A stretch of DNA of 64,000 bases from Vicinamibacterales bacterium (GCA_036504215.1 DASXVO010000016.1:1-64000), one strand, 5' to 3'; positions 9,549 to 58,976 are shown, numbered from the stretch's first letter. Notes: generated by a model not told the origin, from the sequence alone. A program made the numbers and translations.

Positions 9549-9583
9549 GCTGTGCTCCCAGGGCCTCCACCGAGGCCGGCGGT

Positions 9584-16333: not shown

Positions 16334-16368
16334 AGTCCGGCTCCTGGCTCCCGATCTCGACAGGTCCC

Positions 16369-16394
16369 CCGGCCACCCCCGCGGGTGTGGCCGG
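16369..16394. terminator. GC-rich hairpin between convergent genes (putative bidirectional terminator)
   Basis: ccggccac-N10-gtggccgg inverted repeat (8-bp perfect stem plus inner ccc/ggg), 36 nt after the MFS stop and just before the convergent Gfo stop. Confidence 0.3.
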
Positions 16395-16400
16395 GATCGC

Positions 16401-17816: not shown

Positions 17817-17831
17817 GTCCGTTCCTCGGGT

Positions 17832-32262: not shown

Positions 32263-32523
32263 TTGCACACACAACGGAGACGCAGCCAACGTTTCGGTAA
32301 TCGGCAGGCCTGTTCGAGCGCTTGAACGCCCGTAATCGAGGGTGGGTCGGGCCGCACGCCCGACGCTTCCCATCCGAGGACCAGCAGAGGCGCGGCCGGG
32401 TGGACTCCACCCGCCTCGTCCGATAGGATCGGCGGCACGAGACATCACACGGGCCACCGGGGACCGGTCGTTCAACCCAGCCACGTCCGATGCTCAACCG
32501 TGAGCGCGGCGGAGGAGGTTACC

Positions 32524-39074: not shown

Positions 39075-39109
39075 CGGGCGGAACGAATCTTCCTGACAGG
39101 AGCGTTGCC

Positions 39110-42100: not shown

Positions 42101-42628
42101 ATGCTGCGCGAGGTTTTCGTGCCCAGCATCTCGGACGACCAGTCGTGGCCGCTGGCGACCATCGAGTCGCAAATGCTGGCGAAGTTCCTGCCGCCGGCCA
42201 GGCCGGCGGACAAACCGGGTGCACCAGCCGGTGGCGCGCCGGGCGCGCCGACCGCAGCGCCAGGCAAGGTGGTGGGACTCGAGCGGATCCGGCCCGGCTA
42301 CGTCAAGCGCGACGATGTGGCGTGGGTGGCCACTCATCGACACACGCCCGACGGCAACGAGCCGTACATCTTCGGCTACCTGTTCGCGTACGCGATCGAT
42401 CTGCCGGCCGGTGCCACGGCCGTGGTGCTGCCCGAGAACACCCGGATCCGCATCTTCGCGGCGAGCGTGGCCAGCGACCCGGCGCCCGGCACGCGGCCAG
42501 CGGGACCTCTCTACGCGCAGGACCTGGCGTCGCCGGTCCCGGCGGCTGCGCCCGCCGCGAAGCCGGCCACCGCGAACGAGAAGCCGGCCCCGACGGCCGC
42601 GAAGCCCGATGCCGTCAAGCAGGATTGA
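39110..42628 (+). CDS. GH38 alpha-mannosidase with C-terminal extension and Pro/Ala-rich tail
   Basis: Signal peptide MKHLRRVVLVLIGVWLCTLGV. GH38 N-domain (LVSNSHLDTQWNW), central and C-terminal mannosidase domains. Extra about 250 aa ends in PAAAPAAKPATANEKPAPTAAKP. AGGAG RBS. The track GTG start at 39071 overlaps the arfB stop. Confidence 0.75.
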   Translation: MKHLRRVVLVLIGVWLCTLGVHTQQPQAPPAEAAKPTLYLVSNSHLDTQWNWTVQDTIRELVPASFYDNFKLFERFPHYVFNFEGAIHYMWFKEYHPDAWPTLQKYVADGRWKLSGSWINAVDTNVPSPEALMRQALYGKRFYRQEFNKVSQDIYLPDCFGFGFALPSIGAHSGLKAFSTQKLTWGAAKPTPFAIGWWKGVDGNGLVASIRPGDYVKAVTTDISTDPKWNSDLTTLGDGAKVSFKYFGVGDQGGAPDAASVEWVERAIANTRGAVQVRNVSADQLSRDLTDVQRASLPTYEGELLLKTHGVGCYTSQAAMKTWNRRNELLADAAERASLAAEWLGGPAYPRDRLRTAWTRFLWHQFHDDLTGTSIPQAYQFSWNDELISLNQFASILTGAAASVASGLDTRSAAVDAPATSSSGIPLVVYNPLAFARKDVVEATVQIAGAPLAAVRVIDLASGQDVPAQVLSSAAGSARVLFLAEMSPVSFKVFEARRAAKTAESPTLKVGATTLENSRYAVKLDANGDVSSITDKESGTELLKGPSRLELFDNPSFRWPAWEILWDTVSKPPREFAKSPTVRIVERGPARVAIEVTRKAAGSTFIQQIRLAEGGDRVDFDTRVDWRSAGTLLKASFPLAATNPNATYDLGLGTFERGNATAGLYEVPAQQWADLTDASGRFGVAILNDAKYGWDKPTDNELRLTLIHTPMPGKNYVYQSSNDIGHHHFTYSVAGHSAGWREGRVPLRAARLNQPLVAFQTAPHAGPLGRTAGLLDMPDVKGQVAVRAFKKAEDTDEIVLRVQELYGRPVSGLEIGLPAGIQQAREINGAEEKVGPATVSGGKLVVNLKPYQPRTFALTPKPSSARVPAIASAALELPFNVDGISTEAKRADGDFDGHGRTYPAEQMPELLQLNGVTFKLGPTAPGAPNTVATKGQKISLPAGSYNRLYLVASAVDGDAKGTVTIERKGGSPVRVPLSVQDWAGAIGQWDSRLRDDRMLREVFVPSISDDQSWPLATIESQMLAKFLPPARPADKPGAPAGGAPGAPTAAPGKVVGLERIRPGYVKRDDVAWVATHRHTPDGNEPYIFGYLFAYAIDLPAGATAVVLPENTRIRIFAASVASDPAPGTRPAGPLYAQDLASPVPAAAPAAKPATANEKPAPTAAKPDAVKQD

Positions 42629-44656: not shown

Positions 44657-45793
44657 CTACTTGCGCGCGAGGACGTGCATTTCGCTTCCGGCGAGCAGGA
44701 GGGCACCGACGCCGTAGACCTCAGTCGTCTCCGCGGAGGTCGCCCCCGGCTTGTCGCCGATCCGCTGCACCCAGCCCAGCCTGCCGTCCGGCTGCACGGC
44801 GCGCACGAGGGCAGCCCATCCCTTTCGGATGTGCGGGTCATAGGTCGCGCGATCGAGGAGGCCCCGGTTCACGCCCCAGGCCAGCGCGTAGACGAAGAAC
44901 CCAGACCCGCTGGTCTCGGGGTTCGGCAGGCTGCCCGGATCGAGCAGGCTCGCGCGCCAGTACCCATCCTCGCCTTGCAGCGCGGCAACCCTCGCCGCCA
45001 TCTCCTTGAAGAGCGTGATCGCGCGACCACGATCCGCACGGTCCGTGGGCATGTCGTCGATCAGGCGAGCCAGCCCCGCGATCACCCACCCGTTGCCGCG
45101 GCTCCAGAACACCTTCTTCCCATTCGGCTCGCGCTGTTCGAAGAATCGGCTGTCGCGGAAATAGAGGCGCTCGTCCTTGTCGTAGAGGTACTCGGTCGTC
45201 TTCCACCACAGGCGGGTGGCAAGGTCCAGGTACTTGCGGTCGCCGGTCGCTGCCGTGACGGCTGAGAGCGCGGGAGGTCCCATGAACAGCGCGTCGCACC
45301 ACGCCAGTTCGCGCGTCTCGATCGCATTGCCCCAGGCGAGCGGCTCGTCGTAGGGGCGTGTCACGAGATAGTTGAAGAGGGCCAGCGACGGTCTGAGGAG
45401 CTTCGGGTCCTTGTCGATCTGCGCCAGCCCCGCATACGTCGCAATCACGGCGTAGTCGTCGGCATGCCCGGGCCGCAGCCCGGGTCGCCAGGCATTCTTC
45501 TCCCCCATGGTCCGCATCGCCGCCAGGTACTTGGGATCGTCGCTGACCCTGGCGAGAGCCATCACGCCGGTATAGAAGGCCGCCTGCGTCCAGTCCCACG
45601 CGTCGTGCGCGGACGGGTGCGACAGTTGCCAGTCCGCGGCTCCGGTCATGACACCCAGGATTGCCGCCGGTTCGACGGCTGCGCTGAACCGCGCAGGCGC
45701 TGCCGCCGCCACCGGCGCTTGCGGCGCCGCGTGGACCGCGCCGGAACAGGTGATCAGGATCAAGCCGACCAAGCCGATCGCCGAACGTGCCAT
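44657..45793 (-). CDS. GH88/GH105 unsaturated glucuronyl / rhamnogalacturonyl hydrolase, secreted
   Basis: Signal peptide MARSAIGLVGLILITCSGAVHA. (alpha/alpha)6 Glyco_hydro_88-like sequence (WDW...YTG...RGNGW...WV). Confidence 0.6.
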   Translation of the reverse strand: MARSAIGLVGLILITCSGAVHAAPQAPVAAAAPARFSAAVEPAAILGVMTGAADWQLSHPSAHDAWDWTQAAFYTGVMALARVSDDPKYLAAMRTMGEKNAWRPGLRPGHADDYAVIATYAGLAQIDKDPKLLRPSLALFNYLVTRPYDEPLAWGNAIETRELAWCDALFMGPPALSAVTAATGDRKYLDLATRLWWKTTEYLYDKDERLYFRDSRFFEQREPNGKKVFWSRGNGWVIAGLARLIDDMPTDRADRGRAITLFKEMAARVAALQGEDGYWRASLLDPGSLPNPETSGSGFFVYALAWGVNRGLLDRATYDPHIRKGWAALVRAVQPDGRLGWVQRIGDKPGATSAETTEVYGVGALLLAGSEMHVLARK

Positions 45794-45878: not shown

Positions 45879-47381
45879 CTACGTCGTCAACGCGCCCGCC
45901 ACGAACGGATCGAGGTGACGCCGGAAGTGAACTTCGAGGTACCTCGAGTACACCTCCGGGTTCCGATCGATGGCCGCCATGAATCGATCGTAGAAGCGCC
46001 GTGCACCGTCAGCCGTGATCGCCGTGAGCACCGAGCCGAACGTCACGTGGAAGATCTGGCGGGCGTCGAACTGGTCCACGAGCGCGGGCAGATCGGCCGC
46101 GGGCACGGCATCGCCGATCGGCGCGCGATCGAGCCTGGCCGAGACGTGATAGGTTGCCCGGTCCGCGTCGTAGTGATCGCGGGCGAACGCGTACACCTCG
46201 CGGAACAGCTCGGGGTCGAGCGCAGCAATCGTGCGGAGCGCCTCCAGGTAGCTGGTGCCGGCCGTCTTCAGGTGGACGTATCCACCGCAGCGGCGCGCGA
46301 CGATTGGGTAGATCTTGAACTTGTCGGACCCGGAATGGAGGCTCAGCTTGTACGGGCCCAGGGTCCGGGCAATCGCCGCATGAACGGCGATATCGTGATC
46401 GAAGGCGGCGAGATCACCGATGTAGTCCACACCCTTCTCGAATCGTCCGACATAGCGCGGCGCCAGCCCGACCCACGACACGCCCAGCCGCTTCAGTTCC
46501 GACGCGACGTAGTAGTGCTCGGCGTGCGTGGTCGGCGTGTCCGTTTCATCCACCGACACCTCGAGCTCGAACGCTCCCACCCCCGCCTTCTGGACGAGAT
46601 GGCGAAACATCGCCACGACGTGCGCGACGGCCGCTCCGTATTTCACGGCCGCCCGCCCGAGCGATACCTCGTCGAAGCGAATCGTCTCATCCTCGACCTC
46701 GAAGACCCGTCCGACGTAGCGCCGCAGAAGCGCGGTGCCGCAGTCCTCCAGCCGGTCCCACGGCAGCCGGTCGAACGCCTCGCGCAGCGCTGGCCCCGAA
46801 GCGGTGTCGGCTCCGGACTGCACGTGGTCGCCCGGATCGATCGTATAGCAGGTGAATCCAGCGGCCAGGCAGGTGTCGATGTCGAGGGTGCTCTTCAGGT
46901 GATCGGCGTCAGCGCCGTACCCGTCGCGCCAGCCCTCCTGGAACACACCCCACATGGCCTCGTCCACGACCGTCTGTGCACTGCGACCGGTCCGCACCAT
47001 CTCGCGCATCGATTGCTGGGCCACCACAGGCGCAATCCGGCATCCAGTGGCGCGCACGGCGCGCAGGTGTCCGGGCGTCGCCCGCCCGATCCGATCGCCA
47101 AAGCCCGCCGACGTTCGCAGGCCGAGCGGCCTTGGACGCAGCCACGAGCAGCGCGACCGCAACGCCGCCGCGTTGCGGGCCGACAGCGGACAGACGAGCG
47201 AGGTTCGCCCCTGCCAGGTCGATGCATCGCCCTCGAACTCACTCAACCAGGGCGCCGGCCCCGACGCGAAGACCACCAGCCGGGCACCCTGTGCCTGGCG
47301 CACGAGGCCGAACTCCCCGTCCGTCCCCTTGAACACCGACGAGTGAACGACGTCGCCGCCGAGCGAGGTCAGTGCGATCAT
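45879..47381 (-). CDS. UxaE-like tagaturonate/fructuronate epimerase family protein
   Basis: About 500-aa protein with LHSGSDKF and HLKTAGTSYLEAL blocks resembling the UxaE family. Start uncertain: the track GTG at 47420 lies inside the promoter-like TTGACA, so the first ATG at 47381 is used. Confidence 0.4.
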   Translation of the reverse strand: MIALTSLGGDVVHSSVFKGTDGEFGLVRQAQGARLVVFASGPAPWLSEFEGDASTWQGRTSLVCPLSARNAAALRSRCSWLRPRPLGLRTSAGFGDRIGRATPGHLRAVRATGCRIAPVVAQQSMREMVRTGRSAQTVVDEAMWGVFQEGWRDGYGADADHLKSTLDIDTCLAAGFTCYTIDPGDHVQSGADTASGPALREAFDRLPWDRLEDCGTALLRRYVGRVFEVEDETIRFDEVSLGRAAVKYGAAVAHVVAMFRHLVQKAGVGAFELEVSVDETDTPTTHAEHYYVASELKRLGVSWVGLAPRYVGRFEKGVDYIGDLAAFDHDIAVHAAIARTLGPYKLSLHSGSDKFKIYPIVARRCGGYVHLKTAGTSYLEALRTIAALDPELFREVYAFARDHYDADRATYHVSARLDRAPIGDAVPAADLPALVDQFDARQIFHVTFGSVLTAITADGARRFYDRFMAAIDRNPEVYSRYLEVHFRRHLDPFVAGALTT

Positions 47382-47419
47382 GCGATTCGGACTCCAGGAA
47401 CCCAAACCCAATCTTGACA

Positions 47420-47432
47420 CGACGGCCCGTCG
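47420..47432. promoter_or_regulatory. Perfect 6-1-6 palindrome (cgacgg-c-ccgtcg) in the uxaE-like/gntR divergent region; candidate operator
   Basis: Seen in the sequence immediately downstream of a TTGACA hexamer (47414-47419) and upstream of the GntR-family regulator start. Confidence 0.2.
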
Positions 47433-47448
47433 CTGTTAGTGATGTCTC

Positions 47449-48276
47449 GTGCCAACGAATCGTTCTCTCCATGCCCGGCCCGGCCGGCCCGCTCCGCGGG
47501 ACCCCCTGGCCGATTTCCACGAACCGCCGAAGGACAGCGCCAGTCGCATCGTCGACTACGTCCGCGACCTCGTGGTCCGCGGCGGCCTTCGACCGGGCGA
47601 TCGTCTGCCGGCCGAACGCGAGCTGGCCATCCAACTCGGGGTCAGCCGCCCGACGATCCGTGCCGGCCTCAAGGGGCTCGCGGCCATGGGCACCGTCACC
47701 ACCCGTCACGGTGCCGGCACGTTCATCAACCAGTCTCCCGTGCTTCGCAGCGAACCGCTCAACCTGCTCGCGGCGCTGCATGGTTTCACGCGCGAGGAGA
47801 TGTACGAGACGCGGCGGATGCTCGAGGTCGCGGGTGCCGGTCTCGCCGCCGAACGCGGGACGCCCGCGCACATCTCGATCATCGCCGACGAGGTCACCAG
47901 CCTCTTCGCGTCGATGGAGGACCGGCGAACGTTCCTCGTCTACGACATCCGTTTCCACCGCGCGGTCGCAAACGCGTCGGGCAACCCGATTGTCGCCGCC
48001 CTCGTGGAGATGGTCTCCGCGCTGTACTACGACCAGCGCCGGACGACGGCGGAACGCGCGACCGGCCCCAATCTGAGAGACGCGGCCGAAGCCCATCGCC
48101 GCATCTATCTCGCCATCCGCGCCCGCGACGCCGAAGGGGCACGCGAGGCGATGAACGACCACCTCCAGACATCGGCCGCGTACCAGGCCGCCGAAGAGCA
48201 TACTGCCCGGCAGCCCCCGCCGGATACGCCGGCACCCGCGTCCACCACCGGAGGCACGCGGCGGAGGAAGAGCTGA
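47449..48276 (+). CDS. GntR-family transcriptional regulator (FadR/FCD subfamily)
   Basis: wHTH region (RLPAERELAIQLGVSRPTIRAGLKGL) and a C-terminal FCD ligand-binding domain. GTG start. Confidence 0.65.
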   Translation: MPTNRSLHARPGRPAPRDPLADFHEPPKDSASRIVDYVRDLVVRGGLRPGDRLPAERELAIQLGVSRPTIRAGLKGLAAMGTVTTRHGAGTFINQSPVLRSEPLNLLAALHGFTREEMYETRRMLEVAGAGLAAERGTPAHISIIADEVTSLFASMEDRRTFLVYDIRFHRAVANASGNPIVAALVEMVSALYYDQRRTTAERATGPNLRDAAEAHRRIYLAIRARDAEGAREAMNDHLQTSAAYQAAEEHTARQPPPDTPAPASTTGGTRRRKS

Positions 48277-48303
48277 GCAGCCGCCCGCCGATCGGGCGGC
48301 CCG

Positions 48304-49386
48304 TTACCGCTGAATTCGTGCGGACCCGCCGCGCGCGAGCGCCCTCACCTGCTCGACGGTCGCCATCGTCGTGTCGCCAGGGAACGTCGTCAGCAGCGCG
48401 CCGTGCGCCCAGCCCAGTTTCACGGCGTCCTCCGGCGACTGGTTCGTCAACAGGCCGTAGAAGAACCCCGAGGCGAACCCGTCACCGCCGCCCACACGAT
48501 CGAGCACGTTGAGTTCGCACGTCGGCGAGCAGTACGTCTGCCCGTTGACCCACGCCACGGCGCCCCAGCTGTGCCGATTCGTCGAGTGCACCTCACGCAG
48601 GGTGGTCGCCACGACCTTGACCTGCGGATGCTTCTTCACGACGTCCTTGATCATCGCAAAGAACGTGCTGGGATCGAGCTTCGACTTCGCCGACACTTCC
48701 GGACCGGGGATGCCGAGTCCCTTCTGCAGATCCTCCTCGTTGCCGACCAGCACATCCACGTGCTCGACGATGCGCGCCACGACGTCCACGGCGCGCTGCT
48801 GTCCCCCCCAGATATTCCAGAGCTTCTCGCGGAAGTTGAGGTCGAACGAGATCACCGCGCCGGCGGCCTTGGCAGCCTTCATCCCTTCGATGATGACCTC
48901 TCCTGTGGTTTCCGACAGGGCGGCGAAGATCCCGCCGCTGTGGAACCAGCGAACGCCACCGGCGAAGATGGACGCCCAGTCGAAATCACCGGGCTTCAGC
49001 TGCGCCGCGGCTTCGTTCGACCGGTTGTAGAACACGACGGGCGGCCGCACGCCGAAACCGCGGTCGCTGTAGACGGCGGCCATGTTGGGGCCGTTGACGC
49101 CGTTGTGCGCGAATCGCTTGTAGAACGGCCGCACGCCCATCGCCTTGACGCGCTCGGCAATCAGCGCGCCGATGGGATAGTCCACCATGGCCGTGGCGAT
49201 GCCGGTCCGCAGGCCGAAGCAGTCCGAGAGGTTCGCCGCCGCGTTGAACTCGCCGCCGCTCACATGGATGTCGCAGTGCGTGGCCTTGCGGAACGGGACC
49301 AGGCCCGGGTCCAGCCGGTGAACCAGCGCCCCGAGCGACACGAAATCGAGCGCACCGTCCTTTGCGATCTCGAGACCACAAGTCAT
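48304..49386 (-). CDS. kdgK: PfkB-family sugar kinase (2-dehydro-3-deoxygluconokinase-like)
   Basis: Ribokinase/PfkB fold, with the GG motif region and the C-terminal DxxGAGDxF-like VGGGDGFASGF. Start set at M41 (MTCGLEIAKDG). Confidence 0.55.
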   Translation of the reverse strand: MTCGLEIAKDGALDFVSLGALVHRLDPGLVPFRKATHCDIHVSGGEFNAAANLSDCFGLRTGIATAMVDYPIGALIAERVKAMGVRPFYKRFAHNGVNGPNMAAVYSDRGFGVRPPVVFYNRSNEAAAQLKPGDFDWASIFAGGVRWFHSGGIFAALSETTGEVIIEGMKAAKAAGAVISFDLNFREKLWNIWGGQQRAVDVVARIVEHVDVLVGNEEDLQKGLGIPGPEVSAKSKLDPSTFFAMIKDVVKKHPQVKVVATTLREVHSTNRHSWGAVAWVNGQTYCSPTCELNVLDRVGGGDGFASGFFYGLLTNQSPEDAVKLGWAHGALLTTFPGDTTMATVEQVRALARGGSARIQR

Positions 49387-49450
49387 CGTCGTCGTCCTCG
49401 CTACTCTCCCGATCGCGGGCCTGAACACCCGTGCCACATTCACCCGGCGC

Positions 49451-50854
49451 TCACCACTCCGTGTGGAACACCCCCGATTTGTCGACACGGCGGTACGTGT
49501 GCGCACCGAAATAGTCCCGCTGCCCCTGCGTCAGGTTCGCCGGCAGGCGCTCGCTGCGGTACGCATCGAAGTACGCCAGCGACGCACTCGTCGCGAGCAC
49601 CGGAATTCCCATGCCGACGGCCGTCTGGACAACGAGCCTCCACGCGGCTTGCCGTCGCATGACGGCGTCGGCGAACGCGGGGTCGATCAACAGGTTGACC
49701 AGCGTCGGATCGCGCCGGAACGCCGCCATGATGTCGCCCAGCAGACTCGCGCGGATGATGCAGCCAGCGCGCCAGATCTTCGCGATGTCCGCCGGCTTGA
49801 GGTCGTACTTGTACTCGGCCGACGCGATCCGCAGCAGCGCGAGGCCCTGCGCATACGAGGTGATCTTGCTCGCGTAGAGCGCGTCCCGCGCGGCATCGAT
49901 CAACTGCTGGCGGTTCCCGGTGTACTTGGGCGACGGTCCATGGAGCACCCGGCTCGCGGCGACACGCTGCGGCTTGAGCGCCGAGATGAGCCGGCTCTCC
50001 ACCGCCGCGTTGATCGTCGGAATCGCGGCACCGATGTCGAGCGCATTCTGGCTCGTCCACTTCCCCGTGCCCTTCTGCTGCGCCTCGTCGAGGATCACCT
50101 CGACGAGCGGACGGCCGGTGTCCGGGTCGGTCTTGGCGAGCACGGCCGCCGTGATCTCGACCAGGTACGACTTCAACTCGCCCTGGTTCCACTCCGCGAA
50201 GACGTCGTGCAGTTCGGCCGCCGACAGCCCGAGGCCACGCGACAGGACGTCGTAGGTCTCGGCTATCAACTGCATGTCGCCGTACTCGATCCCGTTGTGG
50301 ACCATCTTCACGAAGTGGCCGGCTCCGCCCGGGCCCATGTAGTCCACGCACGGCTCGCCGTCATCGGCCTTCGCGGCGATGGCGCGGAGAATGGGCGCGA
50401 GCGCGTCCCAGGCCTCGGGCTGCCCGCCTGGCATGATGCTCGGCCCCCAGAGCGCACCCTGCTCGCCGCCAGACACGCCCGTGCCCACGTAGTTGAGGCC
50501 GTCAGCCGCCAGGGCCTTGTTCCGGCGCTCCGTGTCCAGGAAGAAGGAGTTCCCGCCGTCGATCAGGATGTCCGCCGCCTCGAGGTGGCCCTTGAGGTGA
50601 GCGATCGCGCTGTCCACGGCCGCCCCAGCCGGCACCATCAGCAGCACGCGCCGCGGCTTGTTCAGCATCGCCATCAGCCGATCCGGCGACTCCGCGATCT
50701 CGACGTTCTTGCCCGCGGCCGGCCCGGTCACGAACGCCTGCCCCTTCGCGGCGTCGAGGTCGTAGCCTGCCACGCGGAACCCGTGACGCTCCATGTTCAG
50801 CGCCAGGTTGCTCCCCATCACGCCGAGTCCGACCACCCCGATATCACACTGCAT
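49451..50854 (-). CDS. gnd: 6-phosphogluconate dehydrogenase (decarboxylating)
   Basis: N-terminal MQCDIGVVGLGVMGSNLALNM NAD(P)-binding motif and a full-length 467-aa Gnd-type sequence. Confidence 0.8.
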   Translation of the reverse strand: MQCDIGVVGLGVMGSNLALNMERHGFRVAGYDLDAAKGQAFVTGPAAGKNVEIAESPDRLMAMLNKPRRVLLMVPAGAAVDSAIAHLKGHLEAADILIDGGNSFFLDTERRNKALAADGLNYVGTGVSGGEQGALWGPSIMPGGQPEAWDALAPILRAIAAKADDGEPCVDYMGPGGAGHFVKMVHNGIEYGDMQLIAETYDVLSRGLGLSAAELHDVFAEWNQGELKSYLVEITAAVLAKTDPDTGRPLVEVILDEAQQKGTGKWTSQNALDIGAAIPTINAAVESRLISALKPQRVAASRVLHGPSPKYTGNRQQLIDAARDALYASKITSYAQGLALLRIASAEYKYDLKPADIAKIWRAGCIIRASLLGDIMAAFRRDPTLVNLLIDPAFADAVMRRQAAWRLVVQTAVGMGIPVLATSASLAYFDAYRSERLPANLTQGQRDYFGAHTYRRVDKSGVFHTEW

Positions 50855-52133
50855 GGACCTGCTCCATGGTAGCGGGCTGCTTCACCCGGTACAACATCTC
50901 CCCGGCACGCGGTACCACCAGCACGCCTTCGTCTTCGCGCCCCGTCCAGTCCTCCAGACGGATCCCGGCCGGATCGCAATAGCCAAGGTTGATCCGCCGG
51001 CACCGTTCCTCCGGAATCCCGGTCGCGAGCGTCACCTGCACGCGCGGCGTCTCGATCCCCGTCGCCACATCGTAGCGCCCCAACCCCTTGACGTGCGTCG
51101 AGTGCGCGAGGACGCCACCAGGATACCCGGAGAACCGGTTCCACTGCCCAAGGAAGTAGTCACGGCAGTGATACCCGATCTCGTCGATGATCCGGCCGTG
51201 CGTGTAGCTCACCTCGGTGATGTGCGGCGCGTAGATGACGACTTCCCCGCCGTCGGCGACCGCGGGCTCGAGCTTGTACATGCCCTTGGCCGCCGTCCAC
51301 AGATCTTCGTACATCTCCGGCATCACCGACAACACCCGGCGGTACGGGCGGTCGACGTGCACGATGTGCGTTTGCGCCGACAGTGCGGCCGCCGCACGCC
51401 ACGCCGCCGGAGCGGTCCCGAAATACAGCCCGACCAGGCTCTCATGGGTCACCACGAGCGCGAAGCACGCCACGGGACGGTCGACGAGCTCGGCCGCCCG
51501 GTCGATGACGGCCCGCACGGGCGTATATCCGGCGCCGATGACGTGGTAACTGCTGATGAGCGCACCGAGCCAGTGCGTGAAGTTGATGATCTCCGGGCCG
51601 GCAATCCCTGGGAACAGGTACTTGTTGCCGCCCGAGAAGCCCACGACCTCATGAGGAAATACCGGTCCGCAGATGATGACCTGGTCGTAGTCGAAGATGA
51701 GCTTGTTGAGCGAGACGACCACGTCCCGCGCGAGGCGGCCTTCGGTCAACTCACCGATCTCCGCGGCAGGAATCGTCCCGAGCGTCGCAAACGTGAACGG
51801 GTCATCCCACCGGTGATTGAAGACCCGGCTCCGCCCGAAGCCCCCAGCCGTGACAGTCCGGCCGAACAGCCGCGTCAACTGTTCGTCGTTCATCGGCTGA
51901 TGCGTGCCGAGGGCGACGAGATAGTCGAGGCGAGACACGCGCAGCCCGGCCGCCGCCTCGATCGCCTCGGTCATCAGCGGCAGCGGCATCGTGCGGGTCC
52001 CGTCCGGCACGAGAACGAGCAGACGGCGTCCGTCGAGCGGGAGCGAGTCGAGGGCTTCGCGGACGACGCGGTGCACGTCCACATCGGTCAGGTGACTGCC
52101 CGCCGTCCCAAGCCCGAAGCAGTCGGAAGTCAT
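50844..52133 (-). CDS. LarA-family (nickel-pincer-cofactor-dependent 2-hydroxyacid racemase/epimerase) homologue
   Basis: DUF2088/LarA-like N-domain and a C-terminal domain of about 430 aa. ATG overlaps the SDR stop (ATGA). Its own stop overlaps the gnd start by 11 nt. Confidence 0.55.
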   Translation of the reverse strand: MTSDCFGLGTAGSHLTDVDVHRVVREALDSLPLDGRRLLVLVPDGTRTMPLPLMTEAIEAAAGLRVSRLDYLVALGTHQPMNDEQLTRLFGRTVTAGGFGRSRVFNHRWDDPFTFATLGTIPAAEIGELTEGRLARDVVVSLNKLIFDYDQVIICGPVFPHEVVGFSGGNKYLFPGIAGPEIINFTHWLGALISSYHVIGAGYTPVRAVIDRAAELVDRPVACFALVVTHESLVGLYFGTAPAAWRAAAALSAQTHIVHVDRPYRRVLSVMPEMYEDLWTAAKGMYKLEPAVADGGEVVIYAPHITEVSYTHGRIIDEIGYHCRDYFLGQWNRFSGYPGGVLAHSTHVKGLGRYDVATGIETPRVQVTLATGIPEERCRRINLGYCDPAGIRLEDWTGREDEGVLVVPRAGEMLYRVKQPATMEQVHAV

Positions 52134-52966
52134 ACGCCACTGAAGGCGGAGAAGCCGCCGTCGATCGGCAGCACGATGCCGGTGACGAACGACGAAGCCG
52201 GCGAGAGCAGCCAGAGCACGGCGCCCAACAGGTCCTCCGGCTTGCCGAATCGGTTCATCGGCGTGTGAGCGAGGATCGTCTGGCCGCGCGCGGTCAGATT
52301 CCCCGTCTCCCTGTCGGTCAGCAGGAACTCGTTCTGCCTGGTCCTCAAGAAGCCCGGGGCGATGGCATTGACGCGGATCTTCGGCGAGTACTCCTGCGCC
52401 ATGTGCACGGCGAGCCACTGCGTGAAGTTGGAGACGGCGGCCTTCGCAGCCGAGTATCCGGGGATGCGTGTGAGCGGGCGGAAGGCGTTCATCGACGAGA
52501 CGTTGAGAATCACCCCCTCACCGCGTTCGACCATCTGCCGGCCGAACACCTGCGACGGAAGCACGGTCCCGAGCAGGTTCAAGTCGACGATCCACCGCAG
52601 CGCGTCGGGGGGAATGTCGAAGAACGACAACTGCGGACCGGTCGTCGCCTCGGCCTTGTTCCCGCCGGCGTTGTTGATGAGCGCATCGGGCGCCCCGAAG
52701 CGGTCGGCGACCATATCGGCGACGCGGCGGAGGCTGTCGACATCGAGCACATCGCCGCCGACGGCGACCGCGCGGCACGCCGCCTCCGGCCCCATCAGAT
52801 CCAGCAGCCCTTTTGCCGGATCGAGGTTGCGGTCGAGCATCACGACGTTGGCGCCGCACCCGACGAGCGCACACGCAAGCTCACCACCGATGACGCCCAT
52901 CGCCCCGGTGACGATGACGGTGCGTCCCGTGAAGTCGTACTGGCGAGTCAACTCAGCCAAGTTCAT
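52130..52966 (-). CDS. SDR-family oxidoreductase (UxuB-type mannonate/fructuronate reductase-like)
   Basis: TGAMGVIG Rossmann motif, NNAG, S...YxxxK catalytic tetrad (YSAAK). 278 aa. Confidence 0.65.
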   Translation of the reverse strand: MNLAELTRQYDFTGRTVIVTGAMGVIGGELACALVGCGANVVMLDRNLDPAKGLLDLMGPEAACRAVAVGGDVLDVDSLRRVADMVADRFGAPDALINNAGGNKAEATTGPQLSFFDIPPDALRWIVDLNLLGTVLPSQVFGRQMVERGEGVILNVSSMNAFRPLTRIPGYSAAKAAVSNFTQWLAVHMAQEYSPKIRVNAIAPGFLRTRQNEFLLTDRETGNLTARGQTILAHTPMNRFGKPEDLLGAVLWLLSPASSFVTGIVLPIDGGFSAFSGV

Positions 52967-53292
52967 AGCAGCGGACCATCCACATCAAGGCCGACACTCT
53001 GGTAATACCAGATCGGCGACGACAACCGGACATGCAACGCGCCGACTGAGAGTCTAGCTGTCGTGGCAACGCCTGTCAACGGGTCTCTTACGCGTTACAT
53101 TTCAACAGTTGGCACGGATGGCCGTCGTCTGGCTCGAGCGCGAAAGCTGACCAATTGGTGTAGGCTGTACGCAGAAATGTAGGCAAATGGACGGACCATT
53201 GGAGAACGCTCCGTCGACCGCCCAGACAAGTGCCGCGCACGCTGCCTCAACTCCGGGTATGATTTCCGTCGCCCTCGCCGCGGAGACTTCCG

Positions 53293-55806
53293 ATGCCCAA
53301 TCCAGCCGGTCTGACCCGCCGGGACCTGCTCAAGTCCGCTGCCGTGGCGACTGCAGCCGCGCTCGGCTGCCCTCCGGCAGGCCTCGGAGCCGTGCAGACC
53401 GCTCCGGCCGGCGTGACGGCGATCGACCTTGCCGGCGGGCGGATCCTCGCGGGCTGGGAGCACTACCGCGGGACCCTCGGCGGCTCGTGGGAAATCTGGC
53501 GCGGCGACAAGGCCAGCGACAACGTGCCGTGGCGGACCGTGGATCTGCCGCACTGCTTCAACGCGCGCGACGCGGTGGATCCTGACACTATCTACTATCA
53601 GGGTCCCGGTTGGTATCGAACCACCATCCCGCTCGATACCGCGGCGGCACCCGGCGGTCGAACGCTGCTCGTCTTCGAAGGGGCGGGCCAGACGACCACG
53701 GTGTGGGTCCACACGCAGAAGGTCGGCAGTCATGTCGGCGGCTACGACGAGTGGCGCGTGGACCTGACTGACTGGCTCGCACGGATCCCCGCCGACTACA
53801 AGGGCGCGGTACCGGTGGCCGTGTGCTGCGACAACTCCCGCGACCTCGAGCGCATCCCGTCCGCCCTCTCGGACTTCAACCTGTACGGGGGGTTGTACCG
53901 GCACGTGCGCCTCGTCCAGGTGCCGGCGATCTCGATCGAACGCATTCACGTGGCCACCGAGGTCACGCCCGGTCAGCCGGCACGGGTGGAAGTGCGGGCG
54001 CGCCTCTACAATCCGACGGCGACACAGAGCGACCTGCGGGTGACGGTGCGCCTCACCGACCCGGGCGGCCGGCCGGTCTCGACGACGACCCGCGCGATGA
54101 CGGCCTGGTCCGGCGAGCAGACGGTCGTGAAGGCAACGCTGGCCTCGCCCGCCCTCTGGTCACCGGAAAGGCCGGCGCTCTACCGCTGCGACGTCACCAT
54201 CGAGAGCGAGCACGGCACGACGACCGCACAGGAAGCGTTCGGCCTGCGATTCGCCGACTGGGTCGAGCGCGGCCCGTTCCGCCTGAATGGCGAGCGCCTG
54301 CTGCTGCGCGGTACACAGCGTCACGAGGACCACGCAGGCCTTGGCGCCGCGCTCACCGACGATCTCGTCCGCCGCGAGCTCCGGATGATCAAGCACATGG
54401 GCGCCAACTTCATCCGGCTCGGCCACTACCAGCAGTCGCGGCTCGCGCTGCAGCTCTGCGACGAACTGGGCTTGCTCGTCTGGGAGGAGGTACCGTGGTG
54501 CCGGGGCGGCGTCGGCGGCGAGCGATATCGGACGCAGGCCCGTGACATGCTCCGCGCGATGATCGATCTGCACTTCAACCATCCGTCGGTCATCTTGTGG
54601 GGGCTCGGCAACGAGAACGACTGGCCCGGCGACTTCGAGACGTTCGATCAGGCCGCCATTCAGTCTTTCATGCGCGAGCTGAACGACCTGGCGCACCAGC
54701 TCGACCCGTCGCGCAAGACCGCCATTCGTCGCTGCGACTTCTGCAAGGACATTCCCGACGTCTACTCGCCGTCGATCTGGGCCGGCTGGTATCGCGGCCG
54801 CTACACGGAATACAAACCGTCGAGCGAAGAGGAGATGAAGCGGGTCAGGCACTTCTTCCACGCCGAATGGGGCGGCGACAGCCACGCCGGCCGGCACTCG
54901 GAGGATCCGGACCGCGTGCTGGCGCGCATCGGCACGGGCCTGGGCACCGACGAACGCGGCCTCGACTATCTCCTCACCGGCGGCCAGACGCGCGCCTCAC
55001 GCGATGGCGACTGGTCCGAGACCTACATCTGCAATCTCTTCGACTGGCACCTCAAGGAACAGGAGACGATGCCGTGGCTGACGGGCGCGGCGCAGTGGAT
55101 CTTCAAGGACTTCTCCACGCCGCTGCGGGGCGAGAACCCGGTTCCACGCATGAACCAGAAGGGACTCGTCGAGCGCGACCTGACGCCCAAGGAGGGCTAC
55201 TACGTCTTCCAGTCCTACTGGGCGGCCGCGCCGATGGTCCACATCTACGGGCATTCGTGGCCCGTGCGATGGGGCGAGCCCGACGAGCAGAAGTTCGTCA
55301 AGGTCTATTCGAACTGCGAACAGGTGGAGCTGTTCGTCAACGGCGTGTCGGCCGGCATCCGGACGCGCAACAGCCAGGACTTCCCCGCTGCCGGCTTGCG
55401 GTGGCTCGTGCGGCTGCGTGAAGGCGACAACGTGCTTCGGGCCGTCGCGGCCGGTCGCGGCGCTCCACCCGTCAGCGACGAGATCCGTACGACGTACCAG
55501 ACCGCGCGGTGGGGCGCCCCGGCGCGCCTCACGCTCGCCGAGGGCGCGCGTGACGGCGAGACGGTGCGCGTCGAGACCTCTCTGCAGGACGCCCACGGCG
55601 TGGTCTGCCTCGACAGCCGTGCCGTCGTGCGGTTCGGTCTCGCCGGCAGCGGGCGCCTGCTCGACAACCTCGGTACCGTGGGCGGGTCGCGGGTGGTCGA
55701 GTTGACGAACGGCCGCGGCCGCATCTCGCTCGTGCGCGCGGGCGGACCGTCCACCATCAGCGTGTCGGCGAAGGGTGTGCCGACGACGTTCCTGCTCGTG
55801 CCATGA
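53293..55806 (+). CDS. GH2 family glycoside hydrolase with TAT signal
   Basis: MPNPAGLTRRDLLKSAAVATAAALG TAT signal. GH2 sugar-binding, Ig-like and TIM-barrel catalytic domains (NFIRLGHY...WGLGNEN...WLTGAAQWIFKDF). Confidence 0.7.
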   Translation: MPNPAGLTRRDLLKSAAVATAAALGCPPAGLGAVQTAPAGVTAIDLAGGRILAGWEHYRGTLGGSWEIWRGDKASDNVPWRTVDLPHCFNARDAVDPDTIYYQGPGWYRTTIPLDTAAAPGGRTLLVFEGAGQTTTVWVHTQKVGSHVGGYDEWRVDLTDWLARIPADYKGAVPVAVCCDNSRDLERIPSALSDFNLYGGLYRHVRLVQVPAISIERIHVATEVTPGQPARVEVRARLYNPTATQSDLRVTVRLTDPGGRPVSTTTRAMTAWSGEQTVVKATLASPALWSPERPALYRCDVTIESEHGTTTAQEAFGLRFADWVERGPFRLNGERLLLRGTQRHEDHAGLGAALTDDLVRRELRMIKHMGANFIRLGHYQQSRLALQLCDELGLLVWEEVPWCRGGVGGERYRTQARDMLRAMIDLHFNHPSVILWGLGNENDWPGDFETFDQAAIQSFMRELNDLAHQLDPSRKTAIRRCDFCKDIPDVYSPSIWAGWYRGRYTEYKPSSEEEMKRVRHFFHAEWGGDSHAGRHSEDPDRVLARIGTGLGTDERGLDYLLTGGQTRASRDGDWSETYICNLFDWHLKEQETMPWLTGAAQWIFKDFSTPLRGENPVPRMNQKGLVERDLTPKEGYYVFQSYWAAAPMVHIYGHSWPVRWGEPDEQKFVKVYSNCEQVELFVNGVSAGIRTRNSQDFPAAGLRWLVRLREGDNVLRAVAAGRGAPPVSDEIRTTYQTARWGAPARLTLAEGARDGETVRVETSLQDAHGVVCLDSRAVVRFGLAGSGRLLDNLGTVGGSRVVELTNGRGRISLVRAGGPSTISVSAKGVPTTFLLVP

Positions 55807-55819
55807 GGAGCCGCACACG

Positions 55820-57001
55820 ATGAGACCGTTGAAGACGCGCCTGGGGTTCGCCTGCGTGGCCGCGCTCGTGTTCGCCGTCCCGGGGCGTGCCCAGTCGGCC
55901 CCGCCCCTCGACATTCGCGCGGCCGAACGCCTCCGCGTCATCCCGCTCGCTGACGCGTTCCTGAAGGAAGCTCCCGAGACGGTGACCGCGAGCCACTCAC
56001 CGCGCAGCGCGGGCGGCACGCACGACTTCTTCTCCGAGGCCGACTACTGGTGGCCGGACCCGAAGGACCCCGACGGTCCGTACATCCAGCGCGACGGGAT
56101 GTCGAATCCCGCGAACTTCGTCGGCCATCGCCTGGCCATGATCCGGTTCAGCACTCATGTGGCCGCGCTGACCTCGGCGTACGTCCTCACGCGCGACGAA
56201 CGGTATGCGGCGCATGCGCTGGCGCACCTGCGTGCCTGGTTCGTGGATTCCGCCACCCGCATGAACCCGAATCTCCAGTTCGCGCAGGCAATCAAAGGAC
56301 GGGCGACCGGACGCGGCACGGGGATCATCGACACCATTCATCTCGTGGAGGTCGCCAGGGCGGCAGGGATCCTCGCGTCCGCTCATTCCGCACGGCCGGA
56401 TGAGATGCGCGCCGTCCGGCAGTGGTTTGGCGAGTACCTGACGTGGCTCACCACCCACGAGTACGGGCTGCAGGAACGGGACGCCAGGAACAACCACGGC
56501 ACGTGCTGGGTCATGCAGGTGGCCGCCTTCGCGCAACTGACCGGCGATGAGGCGCTGCTCGGCGCCTGCCGACGTCGCTACAAGGAGGTGATCGTGCCAG
56601 GGCAGATGGCCGCCGACGGGAGTTTCCCGCTCGAGCTGCGGCGAACGAAGCCGTACGGCTACTCGCTGTTCAACCTCGATGCGCTCGCGACGATCTGTCA
56701 GCTGCTCTCGACGCCGGACGACAATCTCTGGACGTGGTCGCTGCCCGACGGGCGCGGCATTCGAAAGGCGATGGCCTTCCTGTTTCCGTTCATGGAGGAC
56801 AAGGCCACCTGGAGCCACCCGAAAGATGTCATGTACTTCGACGAGTGGCCGGTCCGCCAGCCGAGCCTGCTGTTTGCGGGCCGCGCCCTGCACGAGCCGG
56901 CGTACCTCGACCTGTGGAGGCGTTTGAACGGAACCCCGACGGCCGGGGAAGTGATCCGCAATCTGCCGGTGCGCCACCCACTCGTCTGGTTCGAGCAATA
57001 G
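55820..57001 (+). CDS. Alginate-lyase-family ((alpha/alpha)-toroid, PF05426-like) secreted protein
   Basis: Signal peptide MRPLKTRLGFACVAALVFAVPGRAQS. Conserved WPDPKDPDGPY and NNHGTCWV blocks. Confidence 0.5.
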   Translation: MRPLKTRLGFACVAALVFAVPGRAQSAPPLDIRAAERLRVIPLADAFLKEAPETVTASHSPRSAGGTHDFFSEADYWWPDPKDPDGPYIQRDGMSNPANFVGHRLAMIRFSTHVAALTSAYVLTRDERYAAHALAHLRAWFVDSATRMNPNLQFAQAIKGRATGRGTGIIDTIHLVEVARAAGILASAHSARPDEMRAVRQWFGEYLTWLTTHEYGLQERDARNNHGTCWVMQVAAFAQLTGDEALLGACRRRYKEVIVPGQMAADGSFPLELRRTKPYGYSLFNLDALATICQLLSTPDDNLWTWSLPDGRGIRKAMAFLFPFMEDKATWSHPKDVMYFDEWPVRQPSLLFAGRALHEPAYLDLWRRLNGTPTAGEVIRNLPVRHPLVWFEQ

Positions 57002-57928
57002 ATGGAGTTGCCCCAGCCCCGATTCTTGGGAGGTCATGTGAACATCGACAGTGCTGTCGTGCCGGTAGCCGGTCTCGGCACACGACTGCTGCCCGCCACC
57101 AAATCGCAACCGAAGGAGATGCTGCCGGTCGGACGCAAACCGGTCGTGCAGTACGTGGTCGAGGAGTTGGCCCGCGTCGGGATGCAGCGCGTGCTGTTCA
57201 TCACGGGCCCGGGAAAAGCATCCATCGAGAACCATTTCGATCTGAACGGCGAGCTGATCCAGACGCTCCGTGAGACGGGCAAGGAGGAGTTGCTCGCCGA
57301 ACTGGAGTTCGAGCGTGCCGCGCTCCAGTATTTCTACACGCGGCAGCGGCAGCTCCTCGGGCTCGGCCACGCGGTGCTCTGCGCGCGGTCGTTCGTCGGC
57401 CACCAGCCTTTCGTTGTCGCGCTCGGCGACTCGATCATCGGCTTGCACGCCGAGAGCGATGTGGTTGGCCGGATGACGCAGTGCTTCGCCGAGCGGCAGG
57501 CCGACGCGGTCATCGCATTCGAGGAGGTCCCGCGGGCCGACGTCCATCGATACGGCATCGCCAAACCGCGCACGTCGGGCGACATCTTCGAGATCGACGA
57601 TCTGATCGAGAAGCCCTCGATCCACGAGGCACCGAGCACGTTGGCCATCGCCGCGCGCTACGTGTTGTCGCCGTCGATCTTCGACGCGCTCGACCACACG
57701 CCACCGGGCAAGGGCGGGGAGATCCAGCTGACCGACGCGATCCGCTCGGTCGTTCGCTCCGGAGGGCGGGCGTATGGCGTGCGCCTCCACGCCCATGAAC
57801 GCCGCTACGACATCGGCAACTTCCAGGCGTACTTCCGCGCGTTCGTCGAGTTCGCGCTGGCCGACCCCCGGTTTGGCGCGCCGCTCCGCCGCTATCTCGA
57901 GGACCTGCTCCATGCTGATCGTACGTAA
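57002..57928 (+). CDS. galU: UTP-glucose-1-phosphate uridylyltransferase-like sugar nucleotidyltransferase
   Basis: AVVPVAGLGTRLLPATKSQPKEMLPVGRKPVVQYVVEE matches the GalU N-terminal signature. 308 aa. Starts 1 nt after the lyase stop. Confidence 0.6.
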   Translation: MELPQPRFLGGHVNIDSAVVPVAGLGTRLLPATKSQPKEMLPVGRKPVVQYVVEELARVGMQRVLFITGPGKASIENHFDLNGELIQTLRETGKEELLAELEFERAALQYFYTRQRQLLGLGHAVLCARSFVGHQPFVVALGDSIIGLHAESDVVGRMTQCFAERQADAVIAFEEVPRADVHRYGIAKPRTSGDIFEIDDLIEKPSIHEAPSTLAIAARYVLSPSIFDALDHTPPGKGGEIQLTDAIRSVVRSGGRAYGVRLHAHERRYDIGNFQAYFRAFVEFALADPRFGAPLRRYLEDLLHADRT

Positions 57929-58976
57929 ACGCGCCTTTGCTCGCGCCGGGCTTCTCGGCAACCCGTCGGACGGCTATCACGGCAAGACGATATCCGTCAT
58001 CGTCCGCAACTTCTGGGCCGAGGTCGTCTTGTACGAGTGGGATTCGGTGGACATCGTCCTGGCCGAGGACGACCGCGCCCGGTTCAGCTCTGTCTATGAT
58101 CTCGCGCGAGACGTGCGGCTCCACGGCTACTACGGAGGAATCCGCCTGATCAAGGCCACGATCAAACACTTCGTCGAATACTGCCAGGCCCGTGGCGTGA
58201 CGCTGCACGATCGGAACTTCTCGGTCCGCTACCAGACCACCATTCCGCGGCAGGTGGGCCTGGCCGGATCGAGCGCCATCATCGTCGCCACGCTGCGAAC
58301 GCTGATGGAGTACTACCAGGTCGAGATCCCGAAGGCTGCCCAGCCAACCTTCGTCCTCCAGGTTGAACAGGAAGAGCTGGGGATCTCCGCGGGACTGCAG
58401 GACCGCGTGATCCAGGTGTACGAAGGGGTCGTCTACATGGACTTCGACCGCGCGTGCCGGCAGGAGGTGAACGGCATCCCCTGCTATGCGTACGAGGAAC
58501 TCGACCCCGGCCTGCTGCCGCCCCTCTACCTGGCCTACCACGACGCGCTCAGCGAACCGACCGAAGTGTTCCACAACAACATCAGGGACCGGTTCAACCG
58601 GGGCGACGAGAGCGTCGTGCAGGCGATGCGCCATTTTGCGGCCCTGGCGTGCGCCGGCCGGACAGCGCTCCTCACGGGCGACGCCGATCGGCTGGCCACC
58701 CTCATCGACGAGAATTTCGACACCCGACGCCGCATCTACCAGTTGCCGCCATGGCAGATTGAGATGGTCGAAACGGCCCGCCGGGTCGGCGCGAGCGCCA
58801 AGTTCGCGGGGTCGGGAGGCGCCATCATCGGCACCTGTCGCACCGCCGCGATGCTGGCCGACCTGAAGGCGGCGCTGGCCGCCGCCGGGTCGCGAACCAT
58901 CGAGCCGCAGGTCGAGCCTGAGATGACACCTTTCGCCTCCGAAAGTCGCCACACGTCTGACCACTCACCGGAATGA
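57912..58976 (+). CDS. GHMP-family sugar-1-kinase (glucuronokinase-like)
   Basis: N-terminal ARAGLLGNPSDGYHGKTISVIVRNFW and GHMP motif VGLAGSSAIIVATL. Start overlaps the galU-like gene by 17 nt. Confidence 0.5.
   Translation: MLIVRKRAFARAGLLGNPSDGYHGKTISVIVRNFWAEVVLYEWDSVDIVLAEDDRARFSSVYDLARDVRLHGYYGGIRLIKATIKHFVEYCQARGVTLHDRNFSVRYQTTIPRQVGLAGSSAIIVATLRTLMEYYQVEIPKAAQPTFVLQVEQEELGISAGLQDRVIQVYEGVVYMDFDRACRQEVNGIPCYAYEELDPGLLPPLYLAYHDALSEPTEVFHNNIRDRFNRGDESVVQAMRHFAALACAGRTALLTGDADRLATLIDENFDTRRRIYQLPPWQIEMVETARRVGASAKFAGSGGAIIGTCRTAAMLADLKAALAAAGSRTIEPQVEPEMTPFASESRHTSDHSPE

Follow-up and report, generated by a model that had tools for sequence, protein, structure and literature searches.

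How could a bacterium carry hexuronates into central metabolism from a gene cluster that holds a putative sugar-acid epimerase and a 6-phosphogluconate dehydrogenase, and neither the dehydratase nor the aldolase of the canonical route? The question is raised by a 64,000-nucleotide stretch of DNA from a Vicinamibacterales bacterium (GCA_036504215.1, DASXVO010000016.1:1-64000; called the window here). Four of its genes, on the minus strand between 52966 and 48304, encode a short-chain dehydrogenase/reductase (SDR), a LarA homologue (LarAH), a 6-phosphogluconate dehydrogenase (Gnd), and a sugar-acid kinase of the PfkB family. We propose that the locus is the Vicinamibacterales (Acidobacteriota) form of the Thermotoga-type epimerase pathway for hexuronates, with the epimerase acting first and a gluconate kinase second. 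From the comparisons given below, we put the probability of this reading at roughly two in three.

In the proposed route, free glucuronate or galacturonate would enter by an MFS transporter and be isomerized by UxaC, and UxaE would convert tagaturonate to fructuronate. The SDR would reduce fructuronate to D-mannonate, and the LarA homologue, as a nickel-pincer nucleotide (NPN) enzyme of the GntE branch, would invert C2 to give the gluconate configuration. A PfkB kinase derived from KdgK, the kinase of 2-keto-3-deoxygluconate (KDG), would phosphorylate C6. Gnd would then perform the oxidative decarboxylation of 6-phosphogluconate to ribulose 5-phosphate and regain the NAD(P)H that the reductase had consumed. 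Observed here are the gene identities, the conserved residues, and the conserved synteny; the specificity of every enzyme in the route is predicted from them, that of the kinase above all.

Layout and products of the operon

The SDR gene (52966..52130, minus strand, 278 aa) heads the operon and is followed on the same strand by the genes for the LarA homologue (52133..50844, 429 aa), Gnd (50854..49451, 467 aa), and the kinase (49386..48304, 360 aa; Pfam PfkB), which we designate B-type. The window corresponds to bases 30-64029 of the 91-kb JGI metagenome contig 3300035523, Ga0376481_000335, and has a G+C content of 67%; its LarA homologue is identical to a protein listed by NCBI under a Vicinamibacterales metagenome-assembled genome (Acidobacteriota). 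An independent gene call on this contig gave the same four products, and together with our open reading frames (ORFs) it bears out the four minus-strand genes of an initial annotation of the window. The LarAH ATG (52133-52131) shares bases with the SDR TGA (52132-52130) as ATGA, and the gnd ATG at 50854 and the final base of the LarAH stop at 50844 define an 11-nt overlap; both overlaps, already described in that annotation, were read directly at 52133-52130 and 50854-50844. Translational coupling had been claimed for all four genes. It stands for the SDR, LarAH, and gnd genes and fails for the kinase gene, since a gap of 64 nt separates the latter from gnd.

The SDR contains the Pfam domains adh_short and adh_short_C2 and clears, over its full length, the NCBIfam model NF006132 for the D-mannonate oxidoreductase subfamily (343 bits; cut-off 281). 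This supports its earlier assignment as the reductase of fructuronate to D-mannonate, and we annotate it as a predicted SDR-family fructuronate reductase/D-mannonate oxidoreductase. The identification of Gnd as a decarboxylating, NADP-dependent 6-phosphogluconate dehydrogenase is likewise supported: the protein holds both domains (Pfam NAD_binding_2 and 6PGD) and passes the equivalog cut-offs of NF006765 (679 bits vs. 413) and TIGR00873 (647 bits vs. 427).

The LarA homologue is predicted to be an NPN-dependent hexonate 2-epimerase similar to GntE1. Lar_N (PF09861) is its sole Pfam domain (77 bits; cut-off 23). Its top solved structure is 4NAR (E value 1.5e-69, aligned residues 66-427 of 429), the T. 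maritima NPN-dependent D-gluconate 2-epimerase GntE2 (Desguin et al., 2020; PMC7583248), and it aligns to the LarA structures 5HUQ and 6C1W as well. Residues R47, K171, and H187, which are invariant across 13 homologues, align with the NPN-binding residues R41, K164, and H180 of GntE2 and R75, K184, and H200 of LarA. In LarA, K184 tethers the NPN, H200 binds Ni, and R75 is the third cofactor residue (PMC7583248). The catalytic residues are also kept as D44, H78, H161, and K283 (D72, H108, H174, and K298 in LarA), so that the full set of pincer-binding and catalytic positions is present. In the GntE signature, the second catalytic His is followed by E-V/S and the Ni-binding His by W, and a small residue precedes the catalytic Lys (PMC7583248). 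The window protein has E162-V163, W188, and A282 at these places, which is the group-19 pattern.

Reference sequences of the LarA family were taken from the supplementary table of Desguin et al. (2020; PMC7583248). The window protein was 44-59% identical to six group-19 sequences, among them Roseiflexus Rcas_3031 (59%), Nostoc Npun_F5335 (56%), and Corynebacterium glutamicum GntE1 (44%). Identity was 32-35% to group 20, with T. maritima GntE2 at 35%, and 29-30% to group-18 sequences. A neighbor-joining tree placed it within group 19 together with GntE1, on the Roseiflexus/Nostoc/Truepera side and not on the actinobacterial side. By alignment and tree, then, the protein belongs to group 19, in the branch with tested D-mannonate/D-gluconate C2 epimerases. 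Group placement and conserved residues together support its assignment as a mannonate/gluconate 2-epimerase. A lactate or malate racemase was rejected: the protein reached only 63-90 bits against equivalog cut-offs of 460-500, and it carries the GntE signature in the loop, where LarA and Mar2 have bulky or basic residues. Group-18 membership was also rejected. The top NCBIfam match, the group-18 equivalog model NF052594 ('nickel-dependent putative hexonate epimerase'), had pointed to it, but the score was 181 bits against a cut-off of 500, over model positions 4-329 of 411 only, and identity to group 18 is 29%.

The enzymes feeding the operon are also encoded on this contig. The gene for UxaE, a tagaturonate/fructuronate 3-epimerase (47381..45879, minus strand, 500 aa; Pfam PF16257, 485 bits, above the curated cut-off), lies beside the operon. 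Beyond the 3' end of the window, at 64069-68733 of the contig (14783-19447 in our locus L089), the minus strand carries genes for UxaC, a xylose-isomerase-like TIM-barrel protein, an MFS transporter, and a second GntR/FCD regulator; UxaC and the transporter are 11-16 kb from the operon. Counting these two, all predicted steps from free hexuronate to ribulose 5-phosphate are encoded within about 20 kb. Scanned ORFs of the 64-kb window and the next 8.6 kb included no UxuA, Eda (the aldolase for KDPG, 2-keto-3-deoxy-6-phosphogluconate), KduI, KduD, or second PfkB, in agreement with the initial annotation, which had described the canonical route of UxuA and KdgA as missing here.

Related loci and the kinase

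When one genome per species was scanned, at least 589 relatives of the LarA homologue came up. Of these we analyzed the closest 80, labeled with an L and a number, which came from Acidobacteriota, Chloroflexota, Gemmatimonadota, Methylomirabilota, and Burkholderiales. Because the selection followed similarity to the query, the fractions given here are descriptive and not population estimates. An SDR orthologue was directly upstream of the LarAH gene in 36 of the 80 loci. Gnd was present within 6 kb of it in 36 and UxaE within 6 kb in 17-20, while a LacI regulator (19 loci), UxaC (five), and LarC (seven, Burkholderiales) were found nearby. The order SDR-LarAH-Gnd-PfkB was the same in Acidobacteriota and Chloroflexota genomes, and Gemmatimonadota, Bacteroidota, and Ignavibacteriota had these genes arranged differently. 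This arrangement is not due to chance.

Orthologues of the B-type kinase (69-88% identity) were within 6 kb of the LarAH gene in 30 of the 80 loci. Gnd was the neighbor of 25 of these 30 kinases and the LarA homologue of six; none adjoined Eda. We looked for alternative kinases in the shared gene clusters of the 80 loci, and neither another recurrent sugar-acid kinase family nor a mannonate dehydratase (UxuA) cluster was found among them. A gene of the phosphoribulokinase (PRK)/uridine kinase family was present in five Chloroflexota loci, 8 kb away and on the opposite strand.

The top structure for the kinase is 2AFB, the T. maritima KdgK TM0067 (32% identity). The protein is under every KDG-kinase equivalog cut-off: it scored about 120-125 bits on NF041332 (cut-off 440), 75 on NF040938 (400), and 31 on NF052444 (400). 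A second type of PfkB, which we call A-type, is 32-45% identical to the window kinase and closer to TM0067 than the B-type, and its members scored 192-210 bits on NF041332. Twelve positions conserved between A-type and KdgK proteins (nine of them invariant), two arginines included, are replaced in the B-type. Taken by themselves, these twelve positions separate the paralogues and do not decide between KDG and gluconate.

Both types occur together in L083-L085, from two contigs, one of a Bacteroidota and one of an Ignavibacteriae metagenome-assembled genome (MAG), that were found through the kinase and not through the epimerase. Each contig holds the pair within a single uronate locus, alongside KduI, KduD, and Eda; UxaE, a group-19 LarA homologue, and Gnd are also present in the two-PfkB loci of these MAGs. 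The paired genes (5468-6553 and 8001-9083 in L083; 8001-9083 and 9115-10200 in L085) encode proteins 41-45% identical to each other. On a model of aldolase-fused KDG kinases, the A-type proteins of L083-L085 scored 313-339 bits and the B-type 249. Two parallel branches, each with its own kinase, seem to be present in these loci, and the A-type looks like the true KDG kinase. In L036 and L060, A-type PfkB is within MFS-PfkB-KduI-SDR-Eda modules; the acidobacterial KDG module of L036 also carries an IS605 OrfB/TnpB-type gene (16599-17834) between the KduD-like SDR and Eda.

A third contig, L088, has a bare LarAH-Gnd-PfkB trio. Its B-type kinase is 83% identical to that of the window, and its LarA homologue is of group 18 and only 27% identical. 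With a group-18 epimerase beside the same kinase and Gnd, the kinase-Gnd pair is constant and the epimerase group varies, and this constant pair matches Table S1 of Desguin et al. (PMC7583248), where group 18 is listed as associated with SDR, Gnd, and a kinase of the ribokinase family. Between the window and L083/L085/L088, the kinase is 83-85% identical, against about 55% for Gnd, 37-38% for the SDR, and 27-48% for the LarA homologue. Such identity across phyla could reflect either an unusually strong constraint or a recent transfer.

The gene context suggests that the B-type PfkB is a hexonate 6-kinase, probably for gluconate and possibly for mannonate, and not a KDG kinase. In that position it would feed 6-phosphogluconate to Gnd, directly or by way of 6-phosphomannonate. 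Phosphorylation of gluconate by this kinase had been put forward in the initial annotation. The proposal is favored by kinase orthologues that travel with Gnd and the epimerase, and the nearest sequence matches, all KDG kinases, speak against it. Literature searches on PfkB gluconate kinases and on the present cluster in Acidobacteria gave nothing relevant.

The loci differ among lineages in ways that touch the operon. Chloroflexota have a long conserved operon, LacI-UxaE-SDR-LarAH-Gnd-PfkB-ZnADH-GFO. In L016, L028, L030, L032, L034, L040, L057, L065, and others it may extend by creatininase-ZnADH, and the opposite strand before LacI carries a PRK-family kinase, iPGM, and two HAD genes. An additional branch for L-idonate or L-gulonate might be indicated by the Zn-dependent dehydrogenases. 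Close relatives of the LarA homologue in Burkholderiales/Casimicrobiaceae (L024, L042, L044, L049, L054, L058, L061, L066, L071; 64-70% identity) have nearby LarC, a further LarA paralogue of the canonical kind, and small ORFs of unknown type, with no SDR, Gnd, or kinase; in these organisms the epimerase clade may serve another pathway. In Terriglobia (L008, L013, L014, L019, L023, L027, L063), an SDR-LarAH pair with no Gnd or kinase nearby is followed by a convergent gene for a 629-aa protein that matches UxaE weakly and only in part (72 bits); GT2 and TPR genes often come before it.

Inside LarAH/PfkB-B/Gnd clusters of two unrelated phyla we also observed a PdxB-like D-2-hydroxyacid dehydrogenase, at 2874-4031 in L083 and at about 12400-13560 in L012. 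With 405 bits, the L083 protein is slightly under the cut-off of 434 for the model of 4-phosphoerythronate dehydrogenase, and the copy in L012 shares its Pfam domains (2-Hacid_dh and DUF3410). PdxB oxidizes a phosphorylated aldonate at C2, and its family also includes 2-keto-6-phosphogluconate reductases. A conserved protein of about 300 aa with HAD-type motifs (DSDG...GDAPGD) and no Pfam match at 1e-5 is encoded between the SDR and LarAH genes in eight loci (L020, L021, L026, L031, L033, L037, L072, L081; for example, 9103-9999 in L031), all of which are without a B-type kinase.

Order of the steps and competing explanations

The reactions proposed here have precedents. According to later papers (PMC3750489, PMC7583248, PMC6978723), Rodionova et al. 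(2012) proposed for T. maritima a route from mannonate to gluconate by GntE, then through gluconate kinase to Gnd; two of these papers (PMC7583248, PMC6978723) also mention gntE homologues in Acidobacterium and Terriglobus. The T. maritima operon aldH-pelB-gnd-uxaR-uxaE-uxaD-gntE-gntK has a GntR-family regulator, UxaR, and is induced by pectin (PMC3750489). The reaction chain of the initial annotation, from fructuronate through mannonate and gluconate to 6-phosphogluconate, is thus a rediscovery. In the Desguin et al. (2020) data set, group 19 is linked to larB/larE/larC, LacI, and UxaC and not to Gnd or a ribokinase-family kinase (PMC7583248). By these comparisons, the pathway is already known and the novelty modest: the variant parts would be a KdgK-derived PfkB kinase in place of GntK and, in this lineage, the pairing of a predicted group-19 epimerase with Gnd.

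GntE1, GntE2, and LarAH15 epimerize D-mannonate in vitro, and the order with the epimerase before the kinase is preferred because these three tested GntE enzymes accept the free acid. The Km values for D-mannonate/D-gluconate epimerization are 120 mM for GntE1 and 17 mM for GntE2 (Desguin et al., 2020; PMC7583248), and a 2024 study added a Phytophthora enzyme with 9.4 mM. Millimolar Km values are usual in the LarA superfamily, with 46 mM for L-lactate in LarA itself (PMC7583248), and for that reason we keep epimerization first as the likelier order.

Several observations weigh against the proposed route. GntE1, the closest tested epimerase, has a Km of 120 mM for mannonate, and the authors who characterized it doubted that mannonate is the native substrate (PMC7583248); extracts of L. 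suebicus formed no gluconate from mannonate without ATP (PMC6978723). Among the scanned ORFs of the same 73 kb there was no larB, larC, or larE. The neighboring GH88/105 hydrolase yields a keto-deoxy uronate that needs KduI-KduD-KdgK-Eda, which are outside the view here. The B-type PfkB is solitary in two Bacteroidota contigs, and the 80 loci, as the closest relatives of the query, are a non-random sample. The nearest characterized relatives of the kinase are KDG kinases. The Sulfolobus KDG kinase recognizes its substrate by G34, Y90, Y106, R108, R166, D258, and D294 (PMC5334617); in a mapping by alignment only, the window kinase retains G44, Y120, R122, R186, and the aspartates of DRVGGGD, and has V105 as the equivalent of Y90, with a Tyr at the next position (Y106). 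Most of the recognition residues are kept, so that on sequence alone KDG stays admissible as its substrate.

Some of these points would fit a reversed order, in which the B-type PfkB would serve as D-mannonate 6-kinase and group-18 and group-19 LarA homologues, the window protein among them, as the 6-phospho-D-mannonate 2-epimerase of an L. suebicus-type pathway, feeding Gnd directly. In L. suebicus extracts, mannonate reaches 6-phosphogluconate with the kinase acting first and a 6-phosphomannonate 2-epimerase second: the extracts convert mannonate only with ATP, and they form 6-phosphomannonate, which is exchanged in both directions with 6-phosphogluconate (Valk et al., 2020; PMC6978723), the only report that our searches on 6-phosphomannonate and on mannonate kinases turned up. 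A TM0442 homologue, abundant in cells grown on galacturonate, was put forward as the epimerase (PMC6978723). This order would also explain the very high mannonate Km of GntE1, for which another native substrate was suspected (PMC7583248), and it would mean that the nickel-pincer cofactor acts on a phosphorylated sugar acid. The PdxB-like dehydrogenase in LarAH/PfkB-B/Gnd clusters (L083/L084 and L012) and the HAD-type, phosphatase-like gene between SDR and LarAH are weak hints at phosphorylated intermediates. Against this stand the activity of GntE enzymes of groups 18, 19, and 20 on free mannonate and the range of Km values that is normal for the superfamily; a phosphate-binding site is not identifiable in the sequence, and the kinase candidates of L. 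suebicus are gluconate-kinase homologues, not described as PfkB (PMC6978723). We regard the reversed order as possible, with odds well short of even.

It is less probable, and in our view unlikely, that the kinase is an ordinary KDG kinase supplied by the GH88/105 hydrolase and the lyase nearby, with KduI, KduD, UxuA, and Eda encoded elsewhere and with Gnd and the epimerase separate or incidental, served by another gluconate kinase. The top structure and family matches, the kept recognition residues, the JGI label of the family (2-dehydro-3-deoxygluconokinase), and one locus (L078) that holds both a B-type kinase and Eda agree with such a role. The kinase reaches no KDG-kinase cut-off, however, and of its 30 orthologues near LarAH genes 25 are beside Gnd and none beside Eda. 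In L083-L085 a second KDG kinase would be redundant, because the more KdgK-like paralogue is already present with KduI, KduD, and Eda. The twelve replaced positions also argue against it, and the four-gene operon would then carry two incomplete pathways. A reading in terms of alginate, with the SDR as a reductase of 4-deoxy-L-erythro-5-hexoseulose uronate (DEH) and the PfkB as a KDG kinase, both serving the PF05426 lyase 3 kb away, draws on the fact that the DEH reductases and KDG kinases of alginate clusters fall in the SDR and PfkB families. We rejected it as very improbable: a homologue of the lyase was near the conserved block in none of the 80 loci, the SDR clears the D-mannonate oxidoreductase cut-off, and the LarA homologue, Gnd, UxaE, and UxaC would be left unexplained.

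If the proposed route with epimerization first is correct, hexuronates would reach ribulose 5-phosphate with no net redox cost, a property noted as useful for engineering growth on pectin-rich waste (PMC6978723). The route would not be confined to Thermotoga and would be widespread in abundant phyla of soils and sediments, namely Acidobacteriota, Chloroflexota, Gemmatimonadota, Bacteroidota, and Ignavibacteriota, with at least 589 genome matches. Uronate catabolism in these organisms would hinge on nickel and on the LarBCE cofactor pathway. The epimerase is commonly named 'lactate racemase' and the kinase '2-dehydro-3-deoxygluconokinase', and both names are probably wrong for this family. Thousands of metagenome proteins related to the B-type PfkB carry the label 'sugar kinase' or 'KDG kinase'; the family is widespread, highly conserved, and probably misannotated, and under such names the pathway would be overlooked when the metabolism of these phyla is reconstructed.

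Surroundings, regulation, and closest known systems

A GntR/FCD-family regulator (47449..48276, plus strand; Pfam GntR and FCD), a candidate repressor of the operon, is encoded between UxaE and the kinase, and a GH88/GH105-family unsaturated uronyl hydrolase (45793..44657, minus strand, 378 aa; Pfam Glyco_hydro_88, 258 bits) follows UxaE. Pfam and the gene call thus recovered the three neighbors named in the initial annotation. A sigma-70-like promoter candidate, TTGACA-17-TAGACT, is at 53079-53051 on the minus strand, about 85 nt upstream of the SDR start. It is the sole promoter-like site in 47300-53400, where 0.4 would be expected by chance. Between it and the SDR start, at 53000-53010, lies the palindrome TGGTATTACCA, a candidate GntR/FCD operator with one exact occurrence in the window. 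Among the other fetched loci the palindrome was found only in L003, about 35-45 nt upstream of the SDR gene, and L003 is also the sole related locus in which an orthologous regulator adjoins the operon (81% identity, same position). From these sites we consider that the four genes probably form one transcript from a promoter near 53051-53079 and that the adjacent regulator probably represses it through the palindrome.

The neighborhood is one of polysaccharide utilization. It includes a GH78 rhamnosidase (32500-35316), a GH38 gene (39071-42628), the GH88/105 hydrolase, and, divergent from the operon, a GH2 glycosidase (53293..55806, plus strand, 837 aa; Pfam GH2 domains), whose top NCBIfam match, the beta-glucuronidase model BetGlucuronLacZ4, is below threshold (274 bits; cut-off 950). 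A PF05426 (alginate-lyase family) polysaccharide lyase follows (55820..57001, plus strand, 393 aa; Pfam 307 bits). Between it and a TonB-dependent receptor, overlapping nucleotidyltransferase and GHMP-kinase genes at 57002-58976 (plus strand) may form a salvage pair of sugar-1-kinase and pyrophosphorylase. Farther away, an ORF of 744 aa (36421-38655, plus strand) has a phosphotransacetylase domain (residues 15-345) and a partial acetate-kinase domain (537-681) and may be a fusion protein. Genes for 3-keto-disaccharide-hydrolase-like, xylose-isomerase-like TIM-barrel, and GFO/IDH/MocA proteins, with an MFS transporter (4637-5425, 8559-10759, 14093-17816, 21097-22446), may be a glycoside 3-oxidation system without relation to the uronate operon. 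Rfam and tRNA scans of the window gave no RNA genes.

The closest known system is the UxaR regulon of T. maritima. It shares with the present locus a regulator, UxaE, a fructuronate reductase, GntE, a kinase, and Gnd, six components that lie here within 45879-52966, and its proposed logic is the same, from mannonate through gluconate and 6-phosphogluconate to the pentose phosphate pathway. The kinase differs: here it is a KdgK-like PfkB and not a gntK orthologue, while TM0443 of T. maritima is presumably an FGGY-family gluconate kinase. The epimerase here is of group 19 and 35% identical to the group-20 GntE2, the gene order is different, and the host is a mesophilic soil acidobacterium. Compared with GntE1 (LarAH19) and GntE2 (LarAH20, 4NAR), the window protein keeps the NPN-binding R, K, and H, the catalytic D, H, H, and K, and the signature, although it is only 44% and 35% identical to them.

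The L. suebicus pathway is similar in that UxaC, UxaE, and a fructuronate reductase feed mannonate to 6-phosphogluconate and Gnd in a redox-neutral manner (PMC6978723). It differs in the order of kinase and epimerase, which was measured there in extracts and not tied to genes, and in its kinase candidates, which are gluconate-kinase homologues (PMC6978723). With the Ashwell isomerase pathway (UxaC, UxuB/UxaB, UxuA/UxaA, KdgK, KdgA/Eda) the locus has in common UxaC, the fructuronate reductase, and a KdgK-related PfkB, whereas the 73 kb hold a C2 epimerase and Gnd instead of a mannonate or altronate dehydratase and a KDPG aldolase. Finally, the kinase has the PfkB fold and the Y-x-R, N-[FY]-R, and DRVGGGD motifs of TM0067 (2AFB) and other KdgK enzymes, but it is set apart from them by its 32% identity to TM0067, its scores below the equivalog cut-offs, its twelve substitutions, and its linkage to Gnd rather than Eda.

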